A stretch of DNA of 64,000 nt from Bacteroidota bacterium (GCA_947459245.1 CANHCV010000003.1:8597-72596), one strand, 5' to 3'. Counted from the first letter of the stretch, positions 1 to 55,643 are shown. Made by a program: numbers and translations. Notes: generated from the letters alone by a model not told the origin.

Positions 1-1256
<1,256 letters not shown>

Positions 1257-1278
1257 GGTTCAGACTTTGGTGTTTGTG

Positions 1279-1304
1279 GCCCCGACGAATGTCGGGGCTT
1301 TTTT
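1279..1304 (+). terminator. rho-independent terminator of katG
   Basis: Perfect 8-bp GC-rich stem GCCCCGAC (1279-1286) / GTCGGGGC (1291-1298), loop GAAT, then TTTTTT (1299-1304), 23 nt after the katG stop. Confidence 0.75.
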
Positions 1305-1357
1305 GTTGGGGAAAGCTTCAAGGTTTAGAGTTCTTTAAATTCCCATTCTGTGGTCCA

Positions 1358-1840
1358 CTACTCCACCAAGTAAGAAATTCGGCTGCAATGTTCATCAAAA
1401 TTTCGGTGGGCAACTTCTTTCAACACCTCCAATGCTAAGGGCACATTAATGCTGTGGTGTTCTTCAAAAATAAATAGCACTTCGTGGCAATGGAAAAGCA
1501 CTCGATTATTGAATAAAACTTTTTTCATGTTTCTTTTTAACCATTCCCGGTTTTCCCAATCGTTTCTTTCCTCCGTCATTGAAACCGGGAACAAGGATAC
1601 ATTTAAAAAGGGTTGAAGGGAATGCACCTGCCCTTCTTCGTTAACGGTTTCGCAAGCCAATTCAGCTATTTCAAAATCCATCAAGGTAAATGCTTTGGTG
1701 TTGTAAGCTAAGGCACGTTTGGGCGACTCGACAAACAATCCGGTGAAAAAGGACATTTCCATGAGGGCAGGAAGCACTACATGGCAATTTTTGGGGTTAC
1801 GACCAACCGTTAAACTTTCGGTGAACAATTCTATTTCCAT
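1358..1840 (-). CDS. hypothetical protein, 160 aa (last gene of the orphan module)
   Basis: Uninterrupted ORF starting 11 nt after the upstream ORF stop. No signal peptide or TM segment. The C-terminal 45 aa are rich in His and Cys (FHCHE, EEHH, AHR, DEHC). No family motif recognised. Confidence 0.6.
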   Translation of the reverse strand: MEIELFTESLTVGRNPKNCHVVLPALMEMSFFTGLFVESPKRALAYNTKAFTLMDFEIAELACETVNEEGQVHSLQPFLNVSLFPVSMTEERNDWENREWLKRNMKKVLFNNRVLFHCHEVLFIFEEHHSINVPLALEVLKEVAHRNFDEHCSRISYLVE

Positions 1841-1851
1841 GGGACAAAAAA

Positions 1852-3132
1852 TTAGGCAGACGGTGAATTCTCATTCATTAATGAGTTATATTGGGTAGAT
1901 TCCGACAATTCTCGGGTAATGAGGAACAACGGATTATGGCAATCCATGAAGCGGCGGAATAAATCATTGGAATCGTGCTCTTCAGCACCTTGCAAAAGCA
2001 GGTACGACATCTTTTTTCTTGCAACTTTTTTCAAAATTGGTTTAGAGATTTCAGCTGGAAAATCTTCATGAACCCAATCTTCAAAGTCCTGAAGAAAATG
2101 ATAGTTTTCGTTCATTTCCATCTCCAAAAAAAATCGGGTTCCATATTCGGTAATCATTCGTTTAAATTGCAGTTGAGGAAAGAAAAAATAGGTAGGTGTT
2201 TGAATTCTAATGCCCATAGGCCCTCCCATACCTGAGGTGGCACCATCCAGTTTACTGATGAGCGTTTCAAACTTCACGCTATGAAGGACAAACTCTTTAA
2301 TCACCGCTTCATTCAATGAATGAGCAAAATAGATAATCCAGGTAATTTCTCCTTCTTGATCAATTTTGATAATTTCCATGGTAGCAATTCCCTTGTGGCC
2401 AAAATGAATCACCGTGGAAGAAATGTTTGCTCCTGGAAAGACCTCTGAGAGCTTTTCAAGGTAACTAAAATTATAATCAATGTGAACAAATACCGAATGC
2501 CTCTGAAACAAAAGATCGCCTCGCATGGCAAAAAATCGCTCCGGAGAAATATCTATCCCTGCACTTGGAATTAAAACTTTTCGAGGATCTGTTTCTAAAT
2601 AATTCTCAAGCTCTTGGCATAAATCCTGGTCGAATTCTTTTTCTTTAAAATAGGGACGAAACAAAGTAATGATATTGGTTGAAGGGGGCGTTGTTTCTTT
2701 GTATTCCAAATGTATATCTTGGTAGGATTTTGTAAAAAGTGCATCAACGTCTAATTCAGTTAAGGCAGAAACAAATTTTCTAAGAATCTCTACATCCGAC
2801 TTTTGAAGGCTTACTACTTCAGAAAATTGAACCCCATATCTTCCAAAACATCGCTGAAACAACCGATAATAAACCAACATCACCGTTCGGAATTCGGAAA
2901 TATTACCCATTTCCATTTGAGTGTTCCAAAATCCCAAAAACTTACTGGTGTAATGAAATATTTGCATAAATCGGCTGGAAAAATGAAAAGGTTCGAATTG
3001 CCTTAATTTTTGAATCAACTCTTCCTCCGTTAAACTCATTAGCCAATCTTGGGAGAGGTTTTTAAATGTGAAAAAAATAGGAAATCCTTTAATAAAATGA
3101 TTTTGCCTTGCTGTTGAAATTTGCTCGTTCAT
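1852..3132 (-). CDS. hypothetical protein, 426 aa
   Basis: Long ORF starting 12 nt downstream of the methyltransferase stop. Soluble, with no hydrophobic N-terminus. No P-loop, CxxxCxxC or HxH motifs seen. Confidence 0.7.
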   Translation of the reverse strand: MNEQISTARQNHFIKGFPIFFTFKNLSQDWLMSLTEEELIQKLRQFEPFHFSSRFMQIFHYTSKFLGFWNTQMEMGNISEFRTVMLVYYRLFQRCFGRYGVQFSEVVSLQKSDVEILRKFVSALTELDVDALFTKSYQDIHLEYKETTPPSTNIITLFRPYFKEKEFDQDLCQELENYLETDPRKVLIPSAGIDISPERFFAMRGDLLFQRHSVFVHIDYNFSYLEKLSEVFPGANISSTVIHFGHKGIATMEIIKIDQEGEITWIIYFAHSLNEAVIKEFVLHSVKFETLISKLDGATSGMGGPMGIRIQTPTYFFFPQLQFKRMITEYGTRFFLEMEMNENYHFLQDFEDWVHEDFPAEISKPILKKVARKKMSYLLLQGAEEHDSNDLFRRFMDCHNPLFLITRELSESTQYNSLMNENSPSA

Positions 3133-3144
3133 AAGTATTTAAGT

Positions 3145-3876
3145 TTAGATTGCGCGGTATAAAAAATACGTCGATCCGAATCGATCGAATTGATGAAAAG
3201 GTTGGTTGGTGGCTTCAAATCCGACTTCCGTCAACATTTGATGGATTTCCTCCATCTGCCATTGGCGAATTTTAAAAGACTCTTCGTATTCGGAAATACC
3301 CGGCTTCATCTGTCCGCTGAGTTTTTCGTAATACTTGTAAATTTGATCTCCTTGATGGGTAAGAGAGACTGTTTTTGTAATTTTTTCATTCGTGGTTGCC
3401 GTAGGAATTGCTCCTTCAAAAAGGACCTTAGAGGGTAAATCGAACATCAAACCACCACCTCTTTTTAAATACTTACGAATGTTTCTCAAGGATTCCTTCA
3501 GTTCCTCTTCGGATAGCAGGTACGCTAAAACCGTAAAAACAGCCAGCGCGAAATCGGCCACTTCTCCTTGATATTCGGATATGGAACATCGGTGGGTATG
3601 GATGGAAACATTGGCGGCTATGGCATTTTTTTCCAATTGATCCGCCATAGGGTTGCTGCGTTCAATGGCATGAACTTGGAAGCTGCGTTGGGCAAGTGGA
3701 ATGGCCACCCTACCCGTTCCGGCACCGTAATCACATATAACTGCTCGTTGAGGCACTAGCTTTACCAAGGTTGAAAGGGTGGCTTTATTAAAATCATCGT
3801 AGAGCCGGCCATAAAAGTAGTTTTGAACGAAGTCATAGGCCTGCGCATTTCTGTCGTGAGGTAATTGAGTTTTCAT
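3145..3876 (-). CDS. class I SAM-dependent methyltransferase (small-molecule type)
   Basis: Motif I VICDYGAGTGRVAIPLA is followed by an acidic end of beta2 (VHAIERS). Motif post-II/III (ADFALAVFTVLAYL) and LKRGGGLMF are also present. Length 243 aa. Confidence 0.85.
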   Translation of the reverse strand: MKTQLPHDRNAQAYDFVQNYFYGRLYDDFNKATLSTLVKLVPQRAVICDYGAGTGRVAIPLAQRSFQVHAIERSNPMADQLEKNAIAANVSIHTHRCSISEYQGEVADFALAVFTVLAYLLSEEELKESLRNIRKYLKRGGGLMFDLPSKVLFEGAIPTATTNEKITKTVSLTHQGDQIYKYYEKLSGQMKPGISEYEESFKIRQWQMEEIHQMLTEVGFEATNQPFHQFDRFGSTYFLYRAI

Positions 3877-3889
3877 GGGATTTTTTTTA

Positions 3890-3897
3890 CAAAGGTA
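3890..3897 (-). promoter_or_regulatory. candidate Bacteroidota -7 box (TAccTTTG) upstream of the methyltransferase gene
   Basis: The minus strand reads TACCTTTG, matching the TAnnTTTG consensus, 13 nt upstream of the ATG at 3876 and inside the 81-nt gap. Confidence 0.3.
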
Positions 3898-3957
3898 AGT
3901 AAGATTTTTATCTTTTCTATATTTTTTTATTTCCTTTACTTTTGCATTGGAACTTAC

Positions 3958-5106
3958 CTATCCAATACCGATGAAATCATGCGCATTGGATAGGTAGGTA
4001 TGTGTTTTCTGATCCAACTCTTGAATGGTTTGAGCGTACAACTGCCCTTGATCTTCGAGGCAATAGGGAATGATGAAAAGCGTTGCATCTATAGGCACTT
4101 CATTCGTTTCCAACCAAGTCTTCAAATTTCTAATTTGCTGATCGGCAGGCATCATTTCCTTTTCACGGATGTGAAAGGCGAAATCTTCCCAGTATATGAT
4201 CCGGCATTTAGGTTTCTTATTTTTCTCTGCGATGCTTCGAGAGCACACAATGAACTGACTTTTCTTCGACTTTGGAATGGCAAAATCGAATTTTTGATGC
4301 GTAAACGAATGCCTTTGATTTTCACTTAGGAACCCTTCCAAAACCATGGTTTCATCGATTTGTTGCTGTTTAAATGGGGTCATATAGCCCCTACAAAGTC
4401 TAACATCCGTGTGTTGGCTTTGGTAAGAAAACCCAGTCCTCCAGGTTCCGATGAAACACATCGCCGGAACCGAGAAAACACCTGCATTTTGCAATACAGG
4501 ATCTCCATTGATGAAAAAAGGACGATGGAGGGTTGGCTCGTGACCGCGTATCCACATATCCGGTTTTACCACATCTTCCCGGCTGAAGAAGCGATTCAAT
4601 ATCCCTAGGGCCAATTCCAAAGGACCCGTTTGAATGGTAGATAGAATTCGTGGGGCTATCCTACCATTGTCGCTCAAAGCGAGGTAAGAGGCCAACCCCT
4701 CCGCGGTACAAAAGACAAATCTAAATTCCCGCCCCAATGAACTTCTTCGAACTCGATATTCAATGGCGTACTGAGGCAAATCTAAAGCAGGGGAAAACTC
4801 ACCGTTATATTCTGCAAACTCGTCCCGAGATAAGAAATTTGAGTAATACAAATTCCTCCGCAAGTTGGTATGATCAACCTCAAAGTGTTTTGTTTCATCA
4901 AAATCTTGGTGAATTTGTTTCTCCAACACTTCAAAATCGAACATTTGAAAGGCCTCATCGTACCATTTCTCAACTTCATCCATTTGTAAATAAAGATTGA
5001 CGTACAAGTACTGATCTACTAGATGTGTCAATCGAAGGAGCGGCTGTAAATCGAATCCGCCACCAATGGAGTAGTAACAGTTTTGAAAATTGATTTTGGT
5101 AATCAT
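3958..5106 (-). CDS. hypothetical protein, 382 aa (first gene of the orphan module)
   Basis: Long ORF with an ATG start at 5104-5106. Soluble. The only motif-like element is the N-terminal YYSIGGGFD. No family recognised. Confidence 0.7.
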   Translation of the reverse strand: MITKINFQNCYYSIGGGFDLQPLLRLTHLVDQYLYVNLYLQMDEVEKWYDEAFQMFDFEVLEKQIHQDFDETKHFEVDHTNLRRNLYYSNFLSRDEFAEYNGEFSPALDLPQYAIEYRVRRSSLGREFRFVFCTAEGLASYLALSDNGRIAPRILSTIQTGPLELALGILNRFFSREDVVKPDMWIRGHEPTLHRPFFINGDPVLQNAGVFSVPAMCFIGTWRTGFSYQSQHTDVRLCRGYMTPFKQQQIDETMVLEGFLSENQRHSFTHQKFDFAIPKSKKSQFIVCSRSIAEKNKKPKCRIIYWEDFAFHIREKEMMPADQQIRNLKTWLETNEVPIDATLFIIPYCLEDQGQLYAQTIQELDQKTHTYLSNAHDFIGIG

Positions 5107-5144
5107 GACTTATTTTGACAAGTTTAATTGGTAAGCACAGAATG

Positions 5145-5152
5145 CAAATATA
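5145..5152 (-). promoter_or_regulatory. candidate -7 box (TAtaTTTG) for the orphan module
   Basis: The minus strand reads TATATTTG, 38 nt upstream of the ATG at 5106, in the AT-rich divergent intergenic region. Confidence 0.3.
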
Positions 5153-5312
5153 AATGCAGTTAGCCGTTTTTTGGCTTTATTTTTATAAAACTTTTTTAAT
5201 TGGTTCGTAAAGCGAAAGCATTGTGATTAGAAATATCCCCCTAAACGGTTAATTTATGCGTTTTTTTTAAAATTTCAGCTACCCATCAAGTTCAAAAAAA
5301 TTTTTCTCTCTT

Positions 5313-5340
5313 ACCCGTTTGTAAACGTTTATAAACGTTT
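5313..5340. promoter_or_regulatory. tandem AAACGTTT palindromes (possible operator)
   Basis: The sequence cccGTTTgtAAACGTTTatAAACGTTTc has two perfect 8-bp palindromes (5323-5330, 5333-5340) plus a half-site at 5316-5320. All three are on a 10-bp phase, and the last ends 42 nt upstream of the comEC start. Confidence 0.3.
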
Positions 5341-5381
5341 CATTTACGGCTATCGCCCTTTTCTCTTCCCAATTTCGCCCC

Positions 5382-6899
5382 ATGAATCGGAAAATCAGGA
5401 GCATCCACTGGGGCGAAATCCCCTTTTTTTTCATCACCCTTCCCCTTGGGATTTCCATCTGCATCGCCTATTTCTATCCGCAAAACCATTTTTCCTTTCA
5501 ATGGCTCATCGGACTTAGCATCGTTCCCGTAACAACCTTTTTCATCCCCATTTCTCCCTTCCATTTCCTCCACACTTTGCGAAACTCCATTGCCCCCCTG
5601 CTTTCTTTAACCTCCATTTTTCTTCTTTGGAACCTCTCCCAACAACCGTGGAGGAAATATGAACCTAAAACCCATCAAATCCATCACTTAACCGTTGTGG
5701 AAGTGAAAAAGAAATCGTCCTTTGCCCAATTTGATGATGGAGAAAAAATCTTTCTAAGAACGTCGCAATTCCAAGCTGGAGACCGAATCACGGCAGAGGG
5801 AACACTTCGACGAATTCGTCCGAAACCGACTTCCGACACTTCCCAATTCGATTTTTACACCTATGCCACCCGAAGAAACCTGCGCTACTCCCTCAAACCT
5901 CAACGGGTGGCCTTCGTTGGTCGCGTTCCCTGGTATCATGTGCATCTGCACGCGCTTCGTTGGCGCGACCAAATGGGAAAATCGTTAACCGAAGGTTCCC
6001 ACTATGGAGGTTGGGTAAAAGCGATTTTGTTTGGCGATGACCGAGAAATTGAGGGCGATGCCTTAACGGTTTTCCAACAAACGGGCACGCTCCACGTACT
6101 CGCAGTTTCTGGTATGCACGTTAGCGTGCTCTTTACAGTGGTGGATGCCATTTTGAAATTCCTACCCGGATTCCGGCGCTGGCCATGGATTCGTTTTTTT
6201 GCCGGAAACGTTACCCTGTGGTTGTACGCCTTGGTTTCCGGATTTTCTCCCAGCATCGCCCGCTCGGCATGGATGTTTAGCCTTGGAAGTTTAGGCAAAC
6301 TGATTCACCGAGAAGGGATAGCCATCAACCATTTGTTTGCCTCGGCTTTCTTTATTCTCATCGTTGAACCCACGAATCTATTCCACCTCGGCTTTCAACT
6401 AAGCTTTATTGCCGTTGGCTCCATCCTTCTGTTCGAACCCATTTTCACGCACTGGATGTCGTGGAATTCATGGATAGGGAACAAATTGGGCGCGGCCATG
6501 GGGGTTTCAACGGCTGCCCAATTCGGTACTGCGCCCCTCGGATTGTTCTATTTTCACACTTTCCCCATTTGGTTTCTTCCCGCCAACCTGATAGCCGTCC
6601 CCATCAGTTCATTCCTTTTGCTGGTTTACCTCATTTTACTTCCCATCCACCCGATTCTTCCTCATTCCTTTCGCGGATTCATCATCGATCAACCCATCCA
6701 TTTTTTCATTCAAATCATGTCCATTTTCCAATCCGTTCCTTTGGCTACTTTTCAAACTGAAATAACCTGGGAACAAGTGTGGATTTTCTTCCTGGGAATC
6801 CTCCTATTTCGAAATGCGATCATCCTTTCCTCCAAACCCCTTTGGACGCTTACGACCGGTACATTTCTTCTAATTTTCTTGTGGCCTATTTTTCGTTAA
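5382..6899 (+). CDS. comEC: ComEC/Rec2 family competence channel protein (no C-terminal metallo-beta-lactamase domain)
   Basis: Has an OB-like N-terminal region and the competence-domain motif FQQTGTLHVLAVSGMHVSVLF, with many TM segments. The protein ends in a TM helix at 505 aa. Confidence 0.85.
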   Translation: MNRKIRSIHWGEIPFFFITLPLGISICIAYFYPQNHFSFQWLIGLSIVPVTTFFIPISPFHFLHTLRNSIAPLLSLTSIFLLWNLSQQPWRKYEPKTHQIHHLTVVEVKKKSSFAQFDDGEKIFLRTSQFQAGDRITAEGTLRRIRPKPTSDTSQFDFYTYATRRNLRYSLKPQRVAFVGRVPWYHVHLHALRWRDQMGKSLTEGSHYGGWVKAILFGDDREIEGDALTVFQQTGTLHVLAVSGMHVSVLFTVVDAILKFLPGFRRWPWIRFFAGNVTLWLYALVSGFSPSIARSAWMFSLGSLGKLIHREGIAINHLFASAFFILIVEPTNLFHLGFQLSFIAVGSILLFEPIFTHWMSWNSWIGNKLGAAMGVSTAAQFGTAPLGLFYFHTFPIWFLPANLIAVPISSFLLLVYLILLPIHPILPHSFRGFIIDQPIHFFIQIMSIFQSVPLATFQTEITWEQVWIFFLGILLFRNAIILSSKPLWTLTTGTFLLIFLWPIFR

Positions 6900-6959
6900 A
6901 ATGATTTTTATCCATTTTGAAACTCCTTTTTTCGTTAATACTTTTAGTCACCTCAAGCC

Positions 6960-9605
6960 ATGATCAAAAAAACCATTTCCGCCCTCTTTTTTTCGTTATT
7001 CACCTTGGCCGGAATCGGCTGTTGGGACTTTGGTTTCGAAGAAAGTCAATACGTTTCTCCTTTCGATGAAAACATTTTGGTTGCTCCGGATTTGATGCCG
7101 TTTTTGTTTTCGGCCCACGATTTCCATTGGAGCTTTGACTCGCTAAGTGATGGTAATCTTCCCACTTCCGAAGACCGTTGGGTACAGCATTTCAACCATC
7201 AATATTCCAAGAAAGAACTTCAACAGTTGGTGAACGATTGGTCTGAAGAGGATTTTCAACTTGGATTGAAAAGTAAGGCCGATACCTTCAGCAACGCTTT
7301 GTTGACCGATTTTCGGAAGGGGAAACACCCCTTGGAGCGCCAATATTTAGAATTGGCCCACCAAAGTACGTCGCTTAAGCAACGGGATGAATGGGCCAAC
7401 TTCTTCAGTTGGTGGGAAATCAGCTACAAAATAGAAACCGAAGAAGATGTTCCATCCTCTGAGGATACAGCAGCCGCAGCAACGGATGGATCGGAAAATG
7501 GAATCAATACCATTGGCTTGGAGCGTGAGAGGAAAAAGGAAGCGGAAGCTGCGAGACTGCAAGATTCCCTCAGCAGTTCAAGAGGCAAATCCCGCGAAAA
7601 ATTGATCCTGCAATTCGAAAAACTTCGATCAAAAACCAACAACAAGGAATTGCTTGAGCGCATCAATTACCAAATTCTGGTGTTGAATTATTACCAACCC
7701 ATGGGAGGTAATTTTGAAAAACTCTTCCAAAAAATCTATCCTCAACCTCAACCACAATCCATTTTCTATTGGATGGCTTGCGATCATTACGCCGGTACAC
7801 CCCAACGCGAAATGCAGGAAGACAACGCTATGGACTGGGTGCGCATCTTCTTGCATGCTCCCTCCTTGCGAAAAAGTGCCATGGCCTCTTTTCCCGAGCA
7901 AGACGATGAATCGTGGGAAGGTTTGATGAATTGCTCCCAAAACAAAGAAGAAAAAGTAGGTTTATGGTTGATGTTGGCCTACCAACAACCCGAAATTACC
8001 GCTTACGCTTTCGAAAAAGCCTTTCAAATTTCGGAAAAATCTCCATCCACCGATTTATTGATGGTACGGGAAATTCAACTGTTGGAAAGTCAATTTCATC
8101 TTCATGAAAATCGACTAGAAACCTACCCCTACACCATGGGAATTACCTATGAATACGAAGGATTAGAAGTAAAGCAACAAATCAAAGAGCTGGTGTTTCG
8201 CTGGAATCAGCTATTTAGAAAGCACGAAAACCACCTCACCGAAACCCAACACTTGGGTTGGGCATACTTGCAGCACCTGGCCGGAAACGAAGACGATGCC
8301 CTCAAGACCCTTCAAAACTTCCATCCCAAAAACGAAGATATCCAGCGTTCAAAAAAGGTGTTTCAACTATTGGTCCGACAGCAAATCAGTTACCGCGACG
8401 GTTGGAACGATGCCCAAGATGCTCAAACCGTTAAAGATTTGGAATGGTTTTCTACGTTTCCCGGATTCGACCGCATTTCCAACAAAAAAGGGTGGACCAA
8501 TGCCGATTGGGATAACTTTGATGGGAAAATTGACATGAACTACGATGGCCGCATTTTCGAGTCGCATGATACCTACCGATATGCGGCCATGCGCGATGGA
8601 ATGCGGACTTATTTGTACGAATACATGCGCCACCGAAGCGAGGAGGCCGATGCATTCGCCACTCCATCTGCACCGAAGTCTCTCGCCATGTGGTTCTTAT
8701 CTCCCCTTTTTAATGTTTACGACTACCCGGAGAATTGGGATGCTGCTGGAATCGTGGAGCTTCTTCAACACCCGGAAAATCAATCCAAAACCGATCGGTG
8801 GTTTTTCAATCACCTTCCAAAATCGGTAGAACAGACCACCTACATCAAGAAGGGGGATGAATGGGGAGATACCACATTTACCATTCCCATCAATTCCGAC
8901 TTTTGGAATGAAATAGCCGGGGAATTAGCCTTTCAAAGGCGCGATTACGCTGGGGCCTTCCAATGCTTTAAAGCCATTCAGAACCTAAAACAATTCCCTC
9001 GTTTGCAATTGGAGTCCAATCCCCTTTCGCTTTCCGCCATCGATGTTTCCGAATGGGCAAAAACAACTTTTCAAATTCCCTCCATTACCAATAAAATTGA
9101 ATTGGCAGAAGCACTTTACCTTCTTTCTCAACGAACGCAAACCACAGAAATGACCGAAAAATCAGCCCTTGCAACTTGGATGCTCGGAATTTTGGAATTC
9201 AACATTTCTTATGCAGGAAACTCCTGGGAAGCCAGCCGATTCGCTTGGAGTTACAACGATCCAGATGCATTTCAATCGGATGTTTATTGGAGAAAGAAAA
9301 ATCTCCCTGATGAAAAATACTTCGACTGCACCCATCCGAAGCAGTTGATTTATCAAGCTTACCAATACTTCCAATCGCAGAAAAAAGGAAAAGAATTTGC
9401 TGCGGGTTGTGCCATCAGCCTACTTCAATTGAATACCGATGGCACCCCTTCCTATTGGTCGAATTCTCCTAATGCAGGTGCAAGTCAACAATCGGCCATT
9501 TTGATTGATTGGCTACAAACGAAGTTTTCCAAAACCAAAACCTTCCGAACCTTTGAAAAAAATTGCCCTGAATATGAAGTTTACGCCCTTACGAATTGGG
9601 ATTAA
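6960..9605 (+). CDS. large lipoprotein of unknown function, 881 aa
   Basis: Lipoprotein-type signal MIKKTISALFFSLFTLAGIGC. Contains an acidic/low-complexity segment (EEDVPSSEDTAAAATDGSENG...). No catalytic motif recognised. Confidence 0.75.
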   Translation: MIKKTISALFFSLFTLAGIGCWDFGFEESQYVSPFDENILVAPDLMPFLFSAHDFHWSFDSLSDGNLPTSEDRWVQHFNHQYSKKELQQLVNDWSEEDFQLGLKSKADTFSNALLTDFRKGKHPLERQYLELAHQSTSLKQRDEWANFFSWWEISYKIETEEDVPSSEDTAAAATDGSENGINTIGLERERKKEAEAARLQDSLSSSRGKSREKLILQFEKLRSKTNNKELLERINYQILVLNYYQPMGGNFEKLFQKIYPQPQPQSIFYWMACDHYAGTPQREMQEDNAMDWVRIFLHAPSLRKSAMASFPEQDDESWEGLMNCSQNKEEKVGLWLMLAYQQPEITAYAFEKAFQISEKSPSTDLLMVREIQLLESQFHLHENRLETYPYTMGITYEYEGLEVKQQIKELVFRWNQLFRKHENHLTETQHLGWAYLQHLAGNEDDALKTLQNFHPKNEDIQRSKKVFQLLVRQQISYRDGWNDAQDAQTVKDLEWFSTFPGFDRISNKKGWTNADWDNFDGKIDMNYDGRIFESHDTYRYAAMRDGMRTYLYEYMRHRSEEADAFATPSAPKSLAMWFLSPLFNVYDYPENWDAAGIVELLQHPENQSKTDRWFFNHLPKSVEQTTYIKKGDEWGDTTFTIPINSDFWNEIAGELAFQRRDYAGAFQCFKAIQNLKQFPRLQLESNPLSLSAIDVSEWAKTTFQIPSITNKIELAEALYLLSQRTQTTEMTEKSALATWMLGILEFNISYAGNSWEASRFAWSYNDPDAFQSDVYWRKKNLPDEKYFDCTHPKQLIYQAYQYFQSQKKGKEFAAGCAISLLQLNTDGTPSYWSNSPNAGASQQSAILIDWLQTKFSKTKTFRTFEKNCPEYEVYALTNWD

Positions 9606-11928
9606 CCTGTTCCTTTGCTTGGCCAGTTTGGCCGCTGTTTCGCAACCCCTCACTTTAGAAAAAATCATGAGCGGCCAAGATTTCACCGGATATTGGCCCG
9701 AAAATCCGCGTTGGAAACAAAACGAAACCGGATTTTTGTACGAACACCGGGTATTGGGCGATTCTGTAAGTCGAACTTGGTGCTACGATGTAAAGAGCGG
9801 AAAAACTCGGGTTGCTACCGCTTCCGATTTGGCCGAAGTCCTTCCTTTTTTGGTTTGGAATCCGTCCTTTTCCCAAGCCTTGTATTCCAAAAAAGGTAAC
9901 CTCTACCTTTGGAACGAAGCCTCCAAATCCAGTCAGATATTAATCGATTTAGAATCGCCCTGTTTTAGCCCCCAATGGGTAGAAGGCGGTTTCGCTTTTC
10001 AATCCGATCAAACCATTTACCTGTTCCAAAATCAGCAATTGCACGTTTTTGGGAAATTTGGAGACGACCGCAAGCCATCGTCCTCCAACGATTTAACCTC
10101 AAAAAACGAGTGGTTAAAAAATCAGCAAAAAGATTTATTCTTGGTTTTACAAGACCGTAACCGAAATCAAAAACTTTCAAAATCTGCTCAAATCAACGAG
10201 GTGAACGTGGGCCCAGGGCAATTCCCCTTAAACGGCAAAAACTTAGAAACGTGGAACATTTCCTGGGATGCCCAACAACTGATTTACTCGTGCAGCAGCA
10301 ATGCAACCGATGTTGATGAAACCAGCATGCCGGTTTGGATTACCGAAAGTGGTTACGTAAAAACCCAATCGGCTCGCCCCAAAGTAGGAGAAAAACCTGG
10401 AGAAGGGACCCTGAATTGGGCCTCCTTTGAACAAGGAAAATGGAGTTATTCCTCTTTGAAAGACACGCTTTCGGGCCAATGTATTCATCCGAAAGAATTG
10501 AACATCAAAGATCGAACAGCGAAAAAATCAGTCCAGTTTTTTGGGTTATTTCGCTCTCCCAACGGGAAACAATTTGTGATTGAAGCCCAATCCAACGACA
10601 ACAAAGACCGATGGATTGGCGTATGGAAAGATGGAAAATTCTTGGAATTGGATCACCAACACGACGATGCTTGGATTGGCGGACCTGGTATTTCTTCATG
10701 GAGAAGTGGGGATTCCGATTTCGGATGGTTTGATGATGGGCAAATTTATTTTCAAAGTGAAAAAACAGGGTATTCCCATCTCTACCTGCTCAATATCCAA
10801 AATAAAAACAGTACGGCATTAACGGCAGGAAACTTCGAGGTGATGAATCTTCAATTTTTCGCCAAGAAAAAAGTGTTTTTTGCCAACATGAATCGGAATG
10901 AACCGGGCAGATTTTTACCGTGTAAAATTGATCCTAAACTTCCATTGGGTTGGATTTCTTTACTGCCTCCGAAAAAATTGTTGGGAATAGAACCTGGATT
11001 CACCGAAATTTTTGTTGCTCCATCGGGAGAGCAAATGGTTTATCGATTTTCGAACATGGAAAGTCCGTGGGAATTGGCCATTCGGGAAAAAGGGAAGGTG
11101 GATTGGAAGGTCGTCACCCACTCTACTTCCCCCGAGTTTGAGAGGTACGCCTGGAATAAGGGGAAAGTGATTTCTTTTCCCGGCATGGATGGAAAATCGG
11201 TTTACGCCCGGGTGTATCAGCCGGAAAAAGAAGTGAAAAATTCGGCAGCGGTTATTTTCGTACACGGGGCCGGTTATCTGCAAAATGCCCATCATTGGTG
11301 GAGCAATTACTACCGGGAGTTCATGTTCCACCACTTTTTAACCGAGCAAGGTTACACCGTTTTGGACATCGATTACCGTGCGTCGAGCGGATACGGCCGG
11401 GATTGGAGAACGGCCATTTACCGGCACATGGGAGGTTGGGATTTGAACGACCACCTTTCCGGCCGCTCGTATTTGATCAACGAATTGAACATCAATCCTA
11501 AAAAAGTTGGAATGTACGGTGGCAGCTACGGAGGATTTATGACGTTGATGGCCTTGTTTTCGACTCCCGATTCTTTTGCCTGCGGTGCGGCGTTGCGGTC
11601 GGTTACCGATTGGGCGCATTACAACCACGGATATACGGCCAACATTCTCAATACTCCCGAAACCGACTCCTTGGCTTTCGCAAAAAGCAGTCCCATTAAC
11701 TTCGCTAAAAATTTAAAAAATCCACTTTTGATGCTGCACGGGATGGTTGACGATAACGTTCAATTTCAAGACATTGTGCGCTTGTCGCAACGCCTGATTG
11801 AACTCGAAAAAGATCAGTGGGAGTTGGCGGTTTACCCGGTAGAAAACCATGGTTTTAAGGAACGGAGTTCTTGGCTGGACGAATACAAGCGTATCTTTAA
11901 ACTTTTCGAACAACATTTATTGCATTAA
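9574..11928 (+). CDS. S9 family serine peptidase (prolyl oligopeptidase / DPP-IV-like)
   Basis: Start chosen at MKFTPLRIGINLFLCLASLAAVSQ (signal peptide). Catalytic triad context: GGSYGGFMT (Ser), HGMVDDNV (Asp), ENHGF (His). A beta-propeller-like N-terminal half precedes it. Confidence 0.9.
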   Translation: MKFTPLRIGINLFLCLASLAAVSQPLTLEKIMSGQDFTGYWPENPRWKQNETGFLYEHRVLGDSVSRTWCYDVKSGKTRVATASDLAEVLPFLVWNPSFSQALYSKKGNLYLWNEASKSSQILIDLESPCFSPQWVEGGFAFQSDQTIYLFQNQQLHVFGKFGDDRKPSSSNDLTSKNEWLKNQQKDLFLVLQDRNRNQKLSKSAQINEVNVGPGQFPLNGKNLETWNISWDAQQLIYSCSSNATDVDETSMPVWITESGYVKTQSARPKVGEKPGEGTLNWASFEQGKWSYSSLKDTLSGQCIHPKELNIKDRTAKKSVQFFGLFRSPNGKQFVIEAQSNDNKDRWIGVWKDGKFLELDHQHDDAWIGGPGISSWRSGDSDFGWFDDGQIYFQSEKTGYSHLYLLNIQNKNSTALTAGNFEVMNLQFFAKKKVFFANMNRNEPGRFLPCKIDPKLPLGWISLLPPKKLLGIEPGFTEIFVAPSGEQMVYRFSNMESPWELAIREKGKVDWKVVTHSTSPEFERYAWNKGKVISFPGMDGKSVYARVYQPEKEVKNSAAVIFVHGAGYLQNAHHWWSNYYREFMFHHFLTEQGYTVLDIDYRASSGYGRDWRTAIYRHMGGWDLNDHLSGRSYLINELNINPKKVGMYGGSYGGFMTLMALFSTPDSFACGAALRSVTDWAHYNHGYTANILNTPETDSLAFAKSSPINFAKNLKNPLLMLHGMVDDNVQFQDIVRLSQRLIELEKDQWELAVYPVENHGFKERSSWLDEYKRIFKLFEQHLLH

Positions 11929-16365: not shown

Positions 16366-18300
16366 TTATTCCCGAACCAATTGGATCATGAACTGACGGT
16401 AGGGACCCAAACTACCTGGAACCATCATGACCGATTGATTGAGTGCATTTCGAACGAGAAAGCCGATGCTCCAAGCCGAATTGAGCTGAGTTTTCAAGCG
16501 CAAATCGAGGAGAAAATCCCCGTAGGGGTGACGTTCCCGATGCGCTTGAATTCCTGGAATTGTTCCCGCCAATTGCTCCACCCAGGGCCGATCAATGCTT
16601 TCCATGAATCCGTTCCACCTGAAATTTCCACCCATCATCCATTTCCCATAAGCCAACTGCAAATCGGCCCTTCCGAGCCATTTTTGGCGGTACTTGAGGT
16701 ACTTCCACTGCGTAGATGTTACGGTATCAGTTCCGAGGTTGAGCGGTTCGGTTCGGGTTATCCCAGCCAAATAATCCAACCTCCACTTTCCTGAGCTTTG
16801 AAAACCCTTGGCTTGAACATCTACCCCGTAAATTCGGGCCTTCGAAATGTTGGTTGCTCCAAATCCGAATAGGCCAGAATTGAAATTGAATCCATAAGAG
16901 AACTCAATCATGTCGCGGTATTGCTGAAAAAACAAAGCCGCATCAAAAATAAACGACTGATTCTCCTTCTCATACCGATACCCCAATTCGGAACTGTGAG
17001 CAAATTCGGTACGTAAATTGGGATTGGGGAAAATATTGATTCCACCGGTGTTGTTGCTGGTTTTTACATACATTTCAATCAAGGTAGGAGAACGAAAACC
17101 CTGTCCCCAACTGGCCCTAAAAAAATGATTCTCCTTCCAACGGTAATTCACTCCACCCCGAAAAACGGGAGAAGAAATGGGGGTTTTGTTCAAATTGATG
17201 AATTGCTCGTAACGAACCCCGCCTTGAAACACGAACGATTTCCAGGAATAGCTCAACTGCCCAAACAACGCACGATTTACCGAATGAATGGAATCGCGGA
17301 ACAAGTTCACATTCTTCTGATGAATGGCTCCAAAAACTGCACTAAATTGATCTTTCTGATATTTGGAAGTGTATTCGTACAATTCAGATCGATTCAAATT
17401 GTAGAAAACTCGGTTTTTCAACGCGTGCCTCCAATTTTTCCCGTTGTATTGAACGTAGGGATCCAATGAAAAGTACTTCAACACCTGGCTCACCGTGGTA
17501 TCCATGTATTGACTTAGTGCCATGGAATCGCTCTTCCAAATGAAAAATACTCCCGCGGAATCGCGCATGGCATTGGCGGAAACGCCCACTTGAAATCGGC
17601 CGTTCGTGTACCGAATTTTTGCATTTCCCCGAAGCCGATTCGCAAAATCGGAATATCGGTAACTATCGTCTTTCAACGCTTGACCGCCGAAAACAAAGTC
17701 CCATTTTTTCCATTTCTGGGCAGAAACCCACGAAACGGAGTTCAGCATCCGCCGGTCGGTTTGGAAGGGATCAACGTGCTCCTTCGGCGGATCATCAAAC
17801 AACCCGTTTTGAACCCAAACCCGATGGATCGGTTTCTTTTCTGAAGCCCAAAGGGTTTGCAAATGTATCACCCCGTTCAAAGCCGAAGAACCATAAACCG
17901 CTGAAGCGGCTCCTTTCAATACTTCTACCGTTTGAACCTGCTCCATCGGTAAAAAATGCCAGCGAATATCTCCTTCGTAAGCACCCAACATCGGCAAACC
18001 ATCTACCAACAACATTACCCGACTTCCTACCCCAAACGTAAATCCGCTTCCGCCGCGAATATTGGCCTGCCCATTGGTGATGGTCACCCCAGGAACCCGG
18101 TCAATCACGTCGGAAAATTGAGTTCCACCGTTTACAAAAACATTTTTCGAATCGATTTTCTCGAGGGAAATGGTAGATTTTGCCAGCAACCCCAAGGTTC
18201 GGGAGGTCGTAATTTCAAAAGGGCGCAACAAAAGAGGGATTTCTTGGCGCTTTACCGTATCAGAAGGCGAAAGAGCAAGAAAGAGAAACGGCAGAACCAT
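16366..18300 (-). CDS. TonB-dependent receptor, 644 aa
   Basis: Plug-domain motifs DRVPGVTITNGQANIRGGSGF, VMLLVDGLPM and VEVLKGAASAVYGSSALNGVIHLQT. C-terminal beta-barrel ends ...FMIQLVRE. The start overlaps the upstream receptor stop (TAATG). Confidence 0.85.
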   Translation of the reverse strand: MVLPFLFLALSPSDTVKRQEIPLLLRPFEITTSRTLGLLAKSTISLEKIDSKNVFVNGGTQFSDVIDRVPGVTITNGQANIRGGSGFTFGVGSRVMLLVDGLPMLGAYEGDIRWHFLPMEQVQTVEVLKGAASAVYGSSALNGVIHLQTLWASEKKPIHRVWVQNGLFDDPPKEHVDPFQTDRRMLNSVSWVSAQKWKKWDFVFGGQALKDDSYRYSDFANRLRGNAKIRYTNGRFQVGVSANAMRDSAGVFFIWKSDSMALSQYMDTTVSQVLKYFSLDPYVQYNGKNWRHALKNRVFYNLNRSELYEYTSKYQKDQFSAVFGAIHQKNVNLFRDSIHSVNRALFGQLSYSWKSFVFQGGVRYEQFINLNKTPISSPVFRGGVNYRWKENHFFRASWGQGFRSPTLIEMYVKTSNNTGGINIFPNPNLRTEFAHSSELGYRYEKENQSFIFDAALFFQQYRDMIEFSYGFNFNSGLFGFGATNISKARIYGVDVQAKGFQSSGKWRLDYLAGITRTEPLNLGTDTVTSTQWKYLKYRQKWLGRADLQLAYGKWMMGGNFRWNGFMESIDRPWVEQLAGTIPGIQAHRERHPYGDFLLDLRLKTQLNSAWSIGFLVRNALNQSVMMVPGSLGPYRQFMIQLVRE

Positions 18301-20522
18301 TACATAGCAACATTTAGTTGAAGATGGAAGCTGCGGGGTTGACCGATGTTCCCAGGAATAAACAAATACTCTTCATTGAACAGGTTTTTCACCAAGGCTC
18401 CCAAGGAGTAATTTTTGTTCAACTTGCGGAACAAACGCACATCAACCACCCAATCTCCTCCAGGTTTGTTGTCACGAAACTTTTTTACATCCGGAATATT
18501 ATTCAAGAAAATATCGTCGATGCGAAGCATGAAACTGTTGTACCGAATGTTCGTTCCAACATCCCATTTCCCAACGGTTAAATTCACATCGCCTCGGAAC
18601 AAATGACGGTAACGGTACTTCAACCATTTGGCTTCCGGGGGATCACCTAAAACAGGGAAATATCCCAAATTCCGTGGATTCATGTACGTGTAACCGGGTT
18701 GAAGTGAAAGCACATTGTTCCCCCATTTTTGCTGAATACCGGCGGTAACCTCTACCCCGGTAATTCGGGAATCGGCCACTAAATTCTTGGAGGTAAAGCC
18801 CAATTCGCCATTGGCCGGATTCGTCCATGGCGTAAATTCCATCAGGTTTTTGTAGGATGTACGGAAACCGGCCACATCTACAAACCCTTGCCAATTTTTC
18901 CATTTGAACAACTGCCTTGCCCCTACTTCCAGAGAAGTTCCTCTTTCCGGATTTAGATCGGGATTGGAGAATACCACGATCGCACCAGCTCGGGTGTTGG
19001 CGTACCGTTCAGCCACCGAAGCCGTGCGGAATCCTTGACCCGCCGACGCTCTAAAGGTGGTAGCTGGATTTAACTGATAACTCACCCCACCTCGGAAAAT
19101 GGGGAAAACATTCGGCTTTTGATCTTCAATTTGAAAATACTCCAATCGGCCTCCTACCGAAGCGTTCCATTTTCCGCTGGTTTGATCCAACTGCCCATAA
19201 ACGGCATAATTGTTCGATGTTCGGTTGCCGTACATCACTTCACTGCGAACCGCATTATGAATGTACACCGAGCCCAAGTTCAAAGCTCCATCGTTGAATT
19301 TGAACAACTTGGTTTGCTTTTTAAAATTGTATTCGCTGTACATCACAGAACTGGAGGATCGGTAAAGAACATTATCACTCAAATTCGCGTTGGAGTACCA
19401 TCGATTTCGGAAGGTGTGTGTGGTGGTGTTGTTTTGATAGAAAATGAGATAAGGATCTACGTTGACCCTGCGCAAGGATTGGAGGGAAGCGGTATTGTTC
19501 GCAGGGAAATAACAGGAATCGTAATTCTGCCAGAAGATGTAATTTCCAGAGGAGTCGATGGATCCGTTAAGATTCACTCCTGCCACCCAACGATCGTTGA
19601 TGGTGTACCTCAAATTGGAGTTCAAACGAATGCGTTTGGTATTATCAAAAGCTCTGTATCCGGCCAAATCTACGGCATTCCCCCCCACTACGGCGCTCAG
19701 TTTGCCGAACTTTTTTCCGGCCGAAAAGTTCACCCCAAAATTGGGCTGATAGAAGTTGGCCGGCAAGGGATGATCGTTGCGCTGATCAAACATGGAAACA
19801 AACGAAGTTGCTTTGAAGAAGCCCTTGTTCGACTCTGGGAAGCGGGTAAGAATATTGATCACCCCACCCAAAGCCGAAGAACCGTACATGGCCGAAGATG
19901 CCCCTTTGATGACTTCAATTTGTGCTGCGTTTTCGATGGGCAAATAATCCCAAGAAACAGATCCGGCATCGGCACTCAACATCGGCAATCCATCCAACAA
20001 AATCATTACTCGTTGCCCAGCACCGTAACTAAAACCCGCATTTCCGCGAATGTTTGCTTGGGTACCAACGATAGAAACACCCGACATGCGGTTGATGGCA
20101 TCGTCGCCTGTAACGGAATTATTGCGGGTCAATTCAGCCGGTTTCATCACCATGGTGGAAATGGTTACCCGTTCCAATTGTTGCTGAAACCTTCCAGTAG
20201 ATATGGTAACTCCCGACTCTTCGTTGGCTTTTTTTGCCAAAACCAGAGCCACAAACTTGGGATGGATAGCTTGAAGAGAATCGAACCGCAAGCTCATTTT
20301 ATCATATCCCAAACAGGAAATTTGCAACTGAGCCGACGGAGGCAAGGAAATCGAAATTCGACCATCGGTGTTGGTGATTCCACCGATAGTTGTGCCCAAG
20401 GCAGAAACCGATGCGCTTCCAACGGGAAGACCCAATTCATCTTTCAAAATAATGGTGTAGGGAATTTGAGCGTTCACCGCTCCAACAACCCCTAAAAGCA
20501 AACCCAATAACCAAGTTCTCAT
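18300..20522 (-). CDS. TonB-dependent receptor with CarboxypepD_reg-like N-terminal domain, 740 aa
   Basis: Signal MRTWLLGLLLGVVGAVNAQ. N-terminal domain (ILKDELGLPVGSASVSA...TNTDGRISI). Plug motifs (MSGVSIVGTQANIRGNAGFSYG, ILLDGLPM, IEVIKGASSAMYGSSALGGVINILT). The barrel ends SFHLQLNVAM. Confidence 0.9.
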   Translation of the reverse strand: MRTWLLGLLLGVVGAVNAQIPYTIILKDELGLPVGSASVSALGTTIGGITNTDGRISISLPPSAQLQISCLGYDKMSLRFDSLQAIHPKFVALVLAKKANEESGVTISTGRFQQQLERVTISTMVMKPAELTRNNSVTGDDAINRMSGVSIVGTQANIRGNAGFSYGAGQRVMILLDGLPMLSADAGSVSWDYLPIENAAQIEVIKGASSAMYGSSALGGVINILTRFPESNKGFFKATSFVSMFDQRNDHPLPANFYQPNFGVNFSAGKKFGKLSAVVGGNAVDLAGYRAFDNTKRIRLNSNLRYTINDRWVAGVNLNGSIDSSGNYIFWQNYDSCYFPANNTASLQSLRRVNVDPYLIFYQNNTTTHTFRNRWYSNANLSDNVLYRSSSSVMYSEYNFKKQTKLFKFNDGALNLGSVYIHNAVRSEVMYGNRTSNNYAVYGQLDQTSGKWNASVGGRLEYFQIEDQKPNVFPIFRGGVSYQLNPATTFRASAGQGFRTASVAERYANTRAGAIVVFSNPDLNPERGTSLEVGARQLFKWKNWQGFVDVAGFRTSYKNLMEFTPWTNPANGELGFTSKNLVADSRITGVEVTAGIQQKWGNNVLSLQPGYTYMNPRNLGYFPVLGDPPEAKWLKYRYRHLFRGDVNLTVGKWDVGTNIRYNSFMLRIDDIFLNNIPDVKKFRDNKPGGDWVVDVRLFRKLNKNYSLGALVKNLFNEEYLFIPGNIGQPRSFHLQLNVAM

Positions 20523-55519: not shown

Positions 55520-55543
55520 AACAACCAACCCTTGAATATGAAG

Positions 55544-55568
55544 CCCTCCCCCGTTGGAGGGTTTTTTT
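55544..55568 (+). terminator. rho-independent terminator of gcvH
   Basis: CCCTCC-CCCGTT-GGAGGG followed by TTTTTTT, 24 nt after the stop. Confidence 0.75.
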
Positions 55569-55600
55569 ATGCCTGAAAAATTAATTTTGCTTTATCTAGT

Positions 55601-55624: not shown

Positions 55625-55643
55625 CATGCATTAGATTTGCAGC

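Follow-up and report, generated by a model that had tools for sequence, protein, structure and literature searches.

The region between katG and comEC in the window (the whole 64,000-nucleotide stretch of DNA that was analysed) is an accessory islet of approximately 4.0 kb (about 1314-5312, no strand) at a variable spot of a freshwater-type Bacteroidota genome. All four of its genes are intact and under purifying selection, and the exchange of the block between lineages is more recent than the divergence of the flanking core genes. In our best reading, to which we assign a probability of roughly 40%, the islet is a putative conflict or defence-type accessory module composed of two units, i.e., the gene of a 382-aa protein (A382) alone and the group 243-426-160 (B243, C426 and D160).

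The first-pass annotation had described four co-directional minus-strand ORFs of 382, 243, 426 and 160 aa, and the ORF listing agrees. They encode A382 (3958-5106), a soluble alpha/beta protein whose family is very rare, B243 (3145-3876), a class-I SAM-dependent methyltransferase, C426 (1852-3132), a two-domain protein, and D160 (1358-1840), an acidic soluble orphan and the last gene of the 243-426-160 operon, with intergenic gaps of 81, 12 and 11 nt in this order. On the left, the katG C-terminus (39-1256, plus strand) is followed by the strong intrinsic terminator that had been proposed to bound the module, a GC-rich hairpin of nine pairs (seven G-C) with a T-run (1278-1299, plus strand). 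Homology to a related Bacteroidota metagenome-assembled genome (L016) stops just past this terminator, near 1313, which is the left edge of the shared sequence. At the right edge of the islet, homology to L016 and to a second relative (L017) restarts at 'cccgtttgtaaacgttt...'. The spacer between A382 and comEC (5107-5381, 275 nt) is probably not the window's largest intergenic region, as had been stated, since 55143-55643 (501 nt) is longer and contains no ORF of at least 70 aa by a crude scan. Mobility genes (integrase, transposase) were absent from the islet in both the ORF listing and Pfam, and a repeat search around it yielded no target-site duplication, flanking direct repeats or terminal inverted repeats; the sole inverted match at its ends (19 nt, 84%; 1334-1352 and 5136-5154) is among 55 chance-level pairs. 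There is no tRNA anywhere in the window and no nuclease, NTPase, integrase or toxin-like domain in the islet, and the neighbouring katG and comEC do not make up a defence island.

The accessory nature of the block follows from comparison with its relatives. In L016, katG (ending at 9619) and comEC (starting at 10001) are directly adjacent and tblastn detects none of the four islet genes, so that these genes sit on an indel of ~4.0 kb. Each relative examined has its own version of the katG-comEC spacer: L016 shows repeat duplications there, and the L017 sequence is unrelated. The window and the close relative L002 have the same synteny, and their DNA identity amounts to 90-96% over positions ~1400-4800 compared to 56-88% in the flanks. 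Synonymous divergence (dS) from L002 is 0.19-0.30 for the four genes, 3-6 times below the 0.74-1.40 of katG, comEC and three further flanking genes, which indicates a recent horizontal exchange of the block. The dN/dS values against the L002 orthologues (0.03-0.20 across the four genes) show that the ORFs are real genes rather than chance ORFs. A scan of 185,579 GTDB species representatives for the 243-, 382- and 426-aa proteins gave no close relative, none were found in IMG/VR, and the islet proteins are extremely rare in collections of 5.8 and 15 billion proteins. Together, the missing genes in L016, the low dS and the absence of close GTDB relatives bear out the earlier proposal of an accessory, probably horizontally acquired or exchanged region. 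With respect to the features of a genomic island, variable presence and divergence incongruence with the flanks are observed, and mobility machinery of its own or integration scars are not. The expectation that the four genes form a conserved unit did not hold: outside the window, the arrangement occurs in one close relative only (L002), a 2.1-kb metagenomic contig probably carries part of it, and A382 homologues have another partner. The mild AT shift that had been suspected applies to the gene of C426 alone, which has the lowest GC (0.367) and GC3 (0.354) of the window (0.439 overall), while the other three genes are in the normal range and the codon usage of the islet is unremarkable, like that of the rest of the window.

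Two promoter-like boxes and a hairpin suggest how the islet may be divided. The TATATTTG box reported earlier in the spacer is indeed present (5145-5152, minus strand, read 5152-5145), 39 nt upstream of the A382 ATG, and is a candidate Bacteroidota-type -7 element, the consensus of which is established for promoters of this phylum. A pattern scan placed a second, TAnnTTTG-type box, TACCTTTG (3890-3897, minus strand), 13 nt ahead of the B243 start. This box is kept in L002 and is a possible separate promoter candidate for 243-426-160. TAnnTTTG boxes alone are weak evidence, as six of them occur on the minus strand within 4 kb. Boxes of this type are common in the AT-rich stretch here. A stable 14-bp hairpin (inverted repeat I2; 3955-3996, minus strand) spans the last codons and the stop codon of A382. 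When the surrounding fragment 3870-4010 (141 nt) was folded, the minimum free energy was -30 kcal/mol (z = -4.9) and none of 200 shuffles was as stable; the 3' arm of the hairpin is kept only partly in L002. Possibly, this hairpin is a transcript end or stabiliser that sets A382 apart from the downstream operon.

Only B243 belongs to a recognisable family. Its motif I (VICDYGAGTGR), from which a SAM methyltransferase had been deduced, is confirmed by Pfam Methyltransf_25 (50.2 bits versus a cutoff of 27; E = 4.4e-13), and Methyltransf_11, _12, _23 and _31 also score above their cutoffs. By these profiles, B243 is a bona fide generic class-I SAM methyltransferase. Among solved structures, CcbJ (4.6e-9) and CypM (4.7e-5) come closest. 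Both are N-methyltransferases of natural products and RiPPs. The best NCBIfam similarities, CpaM and the daptide RiPP methyltransferase, score 44.5 versus a cutoff of 180 and 40.6 versus 175, respectively, cover the SAM-binding core only and give no equivalog-level assignment. The DNA-methylase motif IV, (D/N/S)PP(Y/F/W), is absent from the sequence, as are Pfam matches to N6_N4_Mtase, MethyltransfD12 and DNA_methylase. A role as DNA N6/N4 amino-methyltransferase, as in restriction-modification (R-M) or MADS, was considered and rejected on the lack of motif IV and of cognate nuclease or partner genes. B243 is predicted to be of the small-molecule or protein type; an RNA substrate has also been proposed.

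A382, C426 and D160 have no match in Pfam, NCBIfam, PADLOC, PHROG or PDB sequences, in line with the initial impression of three proteins without a recognisable family. Their Kyte-Doolittle hydropathy, averaged over 19 residues, nowhere exceeds 1.6, which bears out that the proteins lack transmembrane segments and look cytoplasmic. Beyond generic methyltransferase or P-loop similarity, no component of a known anti-phage system in PADLOC-DB v2 is matched.

C426 consists of an all-helical N-domain (residues 1 to ~160; nt 2653-3132) and an alpha/beta C-domain (residues ~160-410; nt 1903-2655) of the DUF7663 type, and its AF2 model has a pLDDT of 82.5 and a pTM of 0.82. In an exhaustive HMMER search, the C-domain retrieved 49 relatives, 30 of which match Pfam DUF7663 (PF24699) at E ≤ 0.01 (best 1.7e-12). 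C426 itself has no Pfam family at E ≤ 1 and does not reach the DUF7663 gathering cutoff of 27 bits, so its C-domain would belong to this family only transitively, via its relatives. The motifs conserved in the C426 family (YPSSGxD, VFIHxD, W..F...NE and CDGITSGMGG) stand in the order conserved in DUF7663. Across the 49 sequences, P189, S190, N274 and G297 are invariant, and conservation reaches at least 90% at D194, D219, W265, E275, D296, G301 and Y315. There is no function or paper on record for DUF7663. To qualify as a class-I methyltransferase fold, a domain would need a seven-stranded beta-sheet of order 3-2-1-4-5-7-6 with a cofactor pocket, and its structural similarity to known methyltransferases would have to be significant. 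In the model, the secondary structure of the C-domain fits beta1-aA-beta2-...-beta6-beta7 in sequential order only. Its best BFVD match is a DOT1-domain protein (E = 2.2e-3; probability 0.99), followed by a 2'-O-methyltransferase, a capping enzyme, a C5-methyltransferase and SAM methyltransferases, and in the PDB CMeT, PsmD and DrdV appear at E = 0.2-0.4. No fold match of C426 or A382 reaches E < 1e-3, the TM-scores are poor, and neither protein is linked to any methyltransferase at the sequence level. The Rossmann-type hint for the 426-aa protein gains partial support: PSAGxD and VFVHID correspond to the two N-terminal motifs that are best conserved in a DUF7663-type domain, and the fold matches, though weak, are repeatedly methyltransferases. 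One mosaic allele (P0002) is 91% identical to C426 over residues 1-125 and 41% over 126-405, and its contig keeps the order ?-426-160 with unchanged spacing.

A382 has homologues in eight clusters among 5.8 billion proteins, and its conserved core is formed by the N-terminal ~200 residues with the motifs IGxGxDxxPLL, TAEGLASY and STIQTG. Its AF2 model is confident (pLDDT 84.7; pTM 0.86) but has no PDB fold match at E < 1e-3; all query-length normalised TM-scores are below 0.2, and the sole methyltransferase-type match is a type III Mod subunit (E = 0.044). An HMM of the N-domain scores 15.5 bits against the DUF7663 protein P0053, and all 9,849 shuffled or reversed controls stayed below this value (maximum 11.1); the reciprocal HMM search was negative. 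In hhalign, the first motif of A382 is in register with that of DUF7663 at a weak profile-profile P of 0.03-0.075. For the nucleotide- or SAM-binding strand suspected in the 382-aa protein, partial support comes from the alignment of IGGGFD with the first DUF7663 motif, but the profile-profile support is weak. No A382 homologue occurs together with the other three genes; elsewhere, their conserved partners are a two-DTG aspartic protease and an McrB-like ATPase.

D160 is represented in 5.8 billion proteins by only one cluster, which is 98% identical, and has no family or PDB match. It has a pI of 5.4, no transmembrane segment and a dN/dS of 0.035 against L002. The small genes that follow other C426 homologues bear no relation to D160, and the one behind the L009 homologue codes for a secreted protein.

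The neighbourhoods of homologues provide the context for a functional reading. Relatives of A382 and C426 often lie near AbiE, STAND or AAA+ NTPases, R-M genes or recombinases, or on a plasmid; this guilt-by-association comprises about ten contexts, taken without a statistical background. For A382, P0005 adjoins an integrase and a MamI-type R-M system, and the operons that begin with P0009 and P0010 also encode an AAA ATPase. Among the C426-type proteins, P0066 is part of a 2.2-kb cassette between 136-nt direct repeats (the aroC 5' end), with AbiEi and AbiEii at a distance of 2.3 kb. P0015 has a Metallophos protein on one side and a 1633-aa NACHT/TPR STAND NTPase on the other, and vWA and PP2C genes are close by. 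The neighbours of P0014 are an AAA ATPase and a further DUF7663 paralogue. A DUF7663-like gene also occurs on a Chryseobacterium plasmid beside a serine recombinase. C426 homologues have different partners at every locus. PADLOC identified AbiE in the neighbourhood of one homologue (L012) and otherwise only P-loop-level matches.

In the proposed conflict or defence-type module, A382 would stand alone with its own upstream box and 3' hairpin, and B243, C426 and D160 would form a tightly packed operon. With low to moderate confidence, we picture a cytoplasmic module built on nucleotide-cofactor-binding, Rossmann-like enzymes. B243 may methylate a protein, a small molecule or RNA, and would not act as a classical DNA amino-methylase. 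The C426 C-domain may be a highly divergent methyltransferase-like fold with a beta1-PSxGxD loop, an acidic residue ending beta2 (VFIHxD) and a conserved CDGxTSG loop following beta4; with SAM or a related nucleotide as its ligand, it would serve as effector or sensor, with the helical N-domain as a putative adaptor. D160 could be the cognate small partner of C426, i.e., a regulator or antidote. In P0002, the only diverged allele known, the N-domain remains 91% identical, whereas the C-domain has diverged along with everything downstream of it. A382 would be a separately mobile gene that shares this functional neighbourhood, and is possibly a distant relative of the DUF7663-type superfamily. 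Several of the above results weigh against this reading, namely the merely generic PADLOC similarity, the lack of a defence island around the islet and of nuclease, NTPase, integrase or toxin-like domains in it, a four-gene arrangement confined to close relatives, the unrelated small genes behind other C426 homologues, the weak fold matches and A382-DUF7663 link, and the small number of genomic contexts.

Three other explanations were weighed. The genes may have no joint function and may be independently mobile 'selfish cargo' accumulated at a recombination-prone intergenic hotspot. This would account for the separate life of A382 with its own conserved partner elsewhere, the locus-by-locus change of partners of C426, the katG-comEC spacer that differs in each relative examined, and the hairpin and separate promoter-like box between A382 and B243. 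However, all four genes share the same low dS against L002, which implies that they moved or were maintained as one block, and all are under purifying selection; the short gaps of 12 and 11 nt suggest that 243-426-160 are co-translated, and the partial P0002 contig retains their order and spacing as ?-426-160. We consider this explanation rather doubtful. A small-molecule or peptide tailoring role, in which a natural-product, RiPP or cofactor methylation cassette would use B243 to methylate a metabolite or peptide and employ A382 and C426 as novel tailoring or scaffold enzymes, seems unlikely. It draws on the nearest structures and NCBIfam similarities of B243, on its lack of motif IV, and on a second and possibly third methyltransferase-like fold in the islet, which would suit serial tailoring. 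Nonetheless, those NCBIfam scores are far under their cutoffs and restricted to the SAM-binding core, the 4 kb contain no precursor-peptide ORF, core biosynthetic enzyme, transporter or regulator, and the homologues of A382 and C426 neighbour AAA+, STAND or McrB-like NTPases, AbiE, R-M genes and recombinases, not biosynthetic clusters.

Finally, the genes could be core or housekeeping genes of the lineage, for instance of an RNA or protein modification pathway, that were lost in L016. The synteny common to the window and L002, the codon usage and the low dN/dS would agree with this, but the clean katG-comEC junction of L016, a dS well under that of the flanking genes, and the extreme rarity of the proteins, with no close relatives in GTDB representatives, have already largely refuted it, and we regard it as highly improbable.

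The islet resembles several known systems in part. As regards MADS, R-M and BREX-like systems, it is accessory and combines a methyltransferase with uncharacterised proteins, and B243 matches PADLOC mad2 at 3.9e-14; yet this match covers only the SAM-binding core (residues 43-157 versus 291-406 of the 492-position model), and further Mad components, nucleases, helicases and ATPases are missing from the islet. An McrBC-type operon in Thermodesulfobacteriota bacterium B35 (L018) is headed by a 37%-identical A382 homologue, followed in a tight arrangement by a two-DTG aspartic protease-like protein, an McrB-like AAA_5 protein (PDB McrB match 1e-10) and a 468-aa partner; the window has none of these partners, and A382 here precedes a methyltransferase operon. 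Members of DUF7663 are mostly stand-alone proteins of 250-290 aa, to which C426 adds a 160-residue helical N-domain that occurs in only ~10 clusters at 50% identity. The strand and helix order of its C-domain is compatible with class-I methyltransferases, which are repeatedly its weak structural neighbours. Unlike the proteins of polymorphic toxin/immunity cassettes, C426 carries no secretion or trafficking domain, and its C-domains remain homologous, with no replacement by unrelated toxins; what it has in common with these cassettes is a conserved N-domain (91%), a diverged C-domain (41%) and a co-diverging small downstream gene.

The islet between katG and comEC is an accessory block of about 4 kb that was recently exchanged and holds four functional genes. 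All four lie on the minus strand, A382 at 3958-5106, B243 at 3145-3876, C426 at 1852-3132 and D160 at 1358-1840, and the ORF listing reproduces the gaps of 81, 12 and 11 nt reported in the first-pass annotation. The left flank is the C-terminus of katG (39-1256, plus strand), whose terminator bounds the islet as described earlier (a strong hairpin followed by a T-run, 1278-1299). The right flank is comEC (5382-6899, plus strand), located beyond an AT-rich spacer of 275 nt that does carry the expected TATATTTG box (5152-5145, minus strand), 39 nt ahead of the A382 start. This spacer is probably not the largest gap of the window, as had been proposed, since the 501 nt of 55143-55643 contain no ORF of at least 70 aa on either strand; an Rfam and tRNA search of that stretch returned no match. 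No RNA genes or riboswitches were found across the window. The four products are acidic and soluble, and the claim that three of them lack transmembrane segments holds: none of the four contains a 19-residue stretch with a Kyte-Doolittle mean above 1.6. The mild AT shift attributed to the whole module is limited to C426 (GC of 0.367 versus 0.439 for the window); A382, B243 and D160 are ordinary in composition and in codon usage. Elsewhere in the window, a 458-aa ORF (19119-20495, plus strand) lies wholly antisense inside a 740-aa ORF (18300-20522, minus strand) and is probably a spurious shadow ORF, though an unusually long one.

By predicted folding, the A382 stop codon lies in a stable hairpin (z = -4.9), a conserved TACCTTTG box precedes B243, and DNA identity to the corresponding locus of a close relative (L002; Logan SRR6058009) falls to 73% in the A382-B243 spacer. 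Together, these features suggest two transcription units, one with A382 alone and one with B243, C426 and D160, for which minus-strand starts would be expected near 5140 and 3885.

The relative L002 has the same order as the window (comEC, A382, B243, C426, D160, katG). In the metagenome-assembled genome 'Bacteroidetes bacterium ZE-Jul18-35' (L016), all four genes are lacking between the end of katG at 9619 and the comEC start at 10001; its katG and comEC are 93% and 76% identical to those of the window. Alignment of the junctions places the indel at about 1314-5312, with its left edge directly past the katG terminator and its right edge at a conserved 'cccgtttgtaaacgtttataaacgtttcat' element upstream of comEC. 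Divergence between the window and L002 was estimated by the Nei-Gojobori method. Values of dS are 0.30 for D160, 0.19 for C426, 0.27 for B243 and 0.27 for A382 (dN/dS of 0.035, 0.20, 0.18 and 0.12, respectively), against 0.91 for katG, 1.40 for comEC, and 1.19, 0.74 and 1.06 for the flanking genes of 881, 807 and 399 aa (dN/dS of 0.032, 0.128, 0.131, 0.072 and 0.123, respectively). DNA identity is likewise 90-96% over roughly 1400-4800 and 56-88% outside. From these values it follows that the four genes are under purifying selection and that the block is 3-6 times younger than its surroundings; the simplest explanation is that it was exchanged horizontally via the homologous flanks. The absence from L016 and the low islet dS (0.19-0.30 versus 0.74-1.40) thus bear out the suggestion of an accessory, possibly horizontally acquired module. 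The surroundings themselves are uneven: over 5382-9605, comEC and the downstream 881-aa protein have 75-76% amino acid identity to L002 (dS 1.2-1.4), while katG (95%) and the 807-aa peptidase (91%) are far less diverged, a pattern that may reflect either heterogeneous evolutionary rates or recombination.

The islet is accompanied by neither an integrase nor a tRNA, target-site duplications are absent, and a repeat search at its edges gave no convincing candidate for a terminal repeat or other integration scar. A 19-nt inverted match (84% complementary) does lie near both ends, at 1334-1352 just past the D160 stop and at 5136-5154 within the A382 promoter region; as one of 55 comparable pairs in the region, it is probably due to chance. 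The katG-comEC spacer varies among related genomes, with a duplicated terminator-containing repeat in L016 and unrelated sequence in L017. The two L016 copies (9664-9735 and 9822-9890) are about 70 nt long, each includes the katG terminator hairpin (ggtcccgacgaaagtcgggac, then a T-run), and the repeat resembles a small element of the REP or MITE type, seemingly identifying the spacer as a hotspot for indels. Positions 5313-5345, about 40 nt ahead of the comEC start, hold a palindromic element in tandem, gtAAACGTTTatAAACGTTTca. This element is kept near-perfectly in L016 and L017, while the comEC protein itself is about 75% identical, and is likely an operator or promoter element for comEC.

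B243 is a canonical class-I SAM methyltransferase. The motif I noted by eye (VICDYGAGTGR) is accompanied by a Pfam Methyltransf_25 match well above threshold (50.2 bits, cutoff 27). Its nearest solved relatives are CcbJ and CypM, which are small-molecule and peptide N-methyltransferases, and all NCBIfam equivalogs score far under their cutoffs. The motif IV of DNA amino-methylases is absent, the match to PADLOC mad2 is limited to the SAM-binding core, and the PHROG scan returned one generic methyltransferase family. A classical restriction-modification or MADS system was rejected for want of both this motif IV and partner genes. B243 shows no relation to the C426 profile.

C426 belongs, by way of its relatives, to the DUF7663 superfamily (Pfam PF24699). 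Searched exhaustively with HMMER, 1.84 billion representatives yielded 49 relatives, about 10 of them full length (roughly 400 aa); most of the others are 250-290 aa long, stand alone and match residues 160-400 only. DUF7663 is matched by 30 of the 49, not by C426 itself, and a literature search on DUF7663 or PF24699 found nothing. Conserved motifs are YPSSGxDxxD, VFIHxD, W..F...NE, CDGITSGMGG and IPTxxY. The AF2 model (pLDDT 82.5, pTM 0.82) has an N-domain made of helices and a C-domain of the alpha/beta type; the strand and helix order modelled for the latter is compatible with a class-I methyltransferase with a hairpin insertion past beta2. Foldseek found no PDB match at E < 1e-3, but the weak matches are repeatedly methyltransferases, with CMeT, PsmD and DrdV in the PDB. 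Those in BFVD are a DOT1-domain protein (E of 2.2e-3, probability 0.99), followed by a 2'-O-methyltransferase, a capping enzyme, a C5-methyltransferase and SAM methyltransferases.

A382 is a member of a very rare family without structural neighbour. Its AF2 model is confident (pLDDT 84.7, pTM 0.86); here too, Foldseek gave no PDB match at E < 1e-3, and all query-length-normalised TM-scores against PDB folds are below 0.2. Matches of the A382 and C426 models to kinesin, rhodanese and gephyrin-E folds were dismissed on query-normalised scores of 0.1-0.2; the best target-normalised score among them is 0.40, for small rhodanese domains. The conserved N-terminal core of A382 (IGxGxDxxPLL, TAEGLASY, STIQTG) looks co-linear with the DUF7663 motifs. 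Motif 1 of both families is aligned by hhalign at only P = 0.03-0.075. The A382 N-domain HMM matches one DUF7663 protein (P0053, 15.5 bits), while all 9,849 controls, whether shuffled or reversed, stayed at or below 11.1 bits; the reciprocal search was negative. A common origin of both families is plausible but unproven.

D160 is conserved in L002 and is an orphan. In a collection of 5.8 billion protein clusters, C426 has two matches, A382 eight and D160 one. Among 185,579 GTDB species representatives, C426 and B243 lack close relatives, and A382 has a single homologue (37% identical) in a Thermodesulfobacteriota genome. For A382, C426 and D160, nothing was returned by Pfam, NCBIfam, PADLOC or PHROGs, nor by searching PDB sequences with either single proteins or profiles. 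No relatives of the islet proteins occur in IMG/VR, and a prophage or phage origin was rejected on this ground and on the generic nature of the only PHROG match, that of B243.

The idea of a conserved four-gene unit stands in part: the order is kept in L002, but B243, C426 and D160 are missing from every locus with a distant A382 homologue. The full-length homologues (at L018, 9992-15272; L001, 8193-10528; L003, 2727-4786) are in each case followed instead by a 223-aa protein that is conserved, with identities of about 44% across these loci. Because it carries two DTGA motifs, this partner looks like a bilobed aspartic protease; it bears no similarity to B243. The pair seems to represent a type of operon not described before. 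In L018 (Thermodesulfobacteriota bacterium B35), it heads a tight operon with an McrB-like AAA_5 protein (1e-10 against E. coli McrB) and then a 468-aa partner. Among A382-family members, P0006 has an N-terminal GGACT/AIG2-like fusion. A fragment of an integrase borders P0005, as does a restriction-modification system of the MamI type. P0009 and P0010 match the N-domain only and head operons with an AAA ATPase.

The neighbours of C426 homologues differ from locus to locus. P0066 is part of a 2.2-kb cassette (a C426-family gene and an ORF6N/pRha-type gene) between two direct repeats, 136 nt each, of the 5' end of aroC (7772-7907 and 9977-10112 of L012, 86% identical), with AbiEi/AbiEii 2.3 kb away. 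P0015 has a Metallophos protein on one side and, on the other, a NACHT/TPR STAND NTPase of 1633 aa; vWA and PP2C genes are close by. Next to P0014 are another DUF7663 paralogue and an AAA ATPase. A Chryseobacterium oryzae plasmid carries a DUF7663-like gene beside a serine recombinase and not far from a gene with a WYL domain. The 166-aa gene downstream of the C426 homologue in L009 was considered as a D160-like partner and rejected, as it is unrelated and its product secreted. A single case is informative on the unit: a 2.1-kb contig encodes the relative P0002 (409 aa) between a 76-aa fragment and a 160-aa gene, spaced as in the window. The identity between P0002 and C426 is 91% over residues 1-125 and only 41% over 126-405, and the 160-aa product was not recovered in the D160 search. 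The C-domain and the downstream gene have therefore diverged together, and the N-domain has not. Qualitatively, and with no statistical background, the relatives are biased toward mobile and defence contexts; PADLOC matched no known system.

Our preferred, still tentative reading (probability of roughly 0.4) is that of a cytoplasmic conflict or defence-type module, in which Rossmann-like, nucleotide-cofactor-binding enzymes would form the core and D160 would be a small co-varying partner. Unlikely, yet a serious contender, is that unrelated mobile cargo genes were gathered at a hotspot: the indel-prone spacer and the changing neighbours of C426 homologues fit, and the order and spacing retained on the P0002 contig speak against it. 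It is doubtful, though conceivable, that the islet is the first recognisable case of a new cytoplasmic conflict system based on a superfamily of extremely divergent methyltransferase-fold enzymes that has so far gone unnoticed. This superfamily would unite C426, through its DUF7663-type domain, with the more distant A382 family; one 4-kb cassette would combine three methyltransferase-fold proteins with D160 as co-varying antidote or regulator, and McrB-like, AAA+ and STAND NTPase modules of other phyla would incorporate the same domains. A shade less credible still is a small-molecule or peptide methylation cassette. The similarity of B243 to CcbJ, CypM and daptide methyltransferases brought a RiPP or natural-product pathway into consideration, but a precursor, core enzyme and transporter are lacking and the scores are far under the cutoffs. 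A housekeeping function is highly improbable given the absence from L016.

If the conflict reading is right, DUF7663 and A382 are enzyme families, as yet uncharacterised, that turn up repeatedly on mobile and defence-type DNA in Bacteroidota and other phyla, with confident models and no solved structural neighbour for A382 and the DUF7663-type C426. If it is wrong, the islet is a small patch of orphan genes specific to a strain, as is commonly seen, and of limited interest. As a compact, naturally present-or-absent set of four genes, it offers a test case for both families, testable because of two natural comparison points: the islet-free sister genome and the mosaic allele in which C-domain and downstream gene co-diverge. 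Among known systems, we liken the islet to the small accessory cassettes of the defence-island type.
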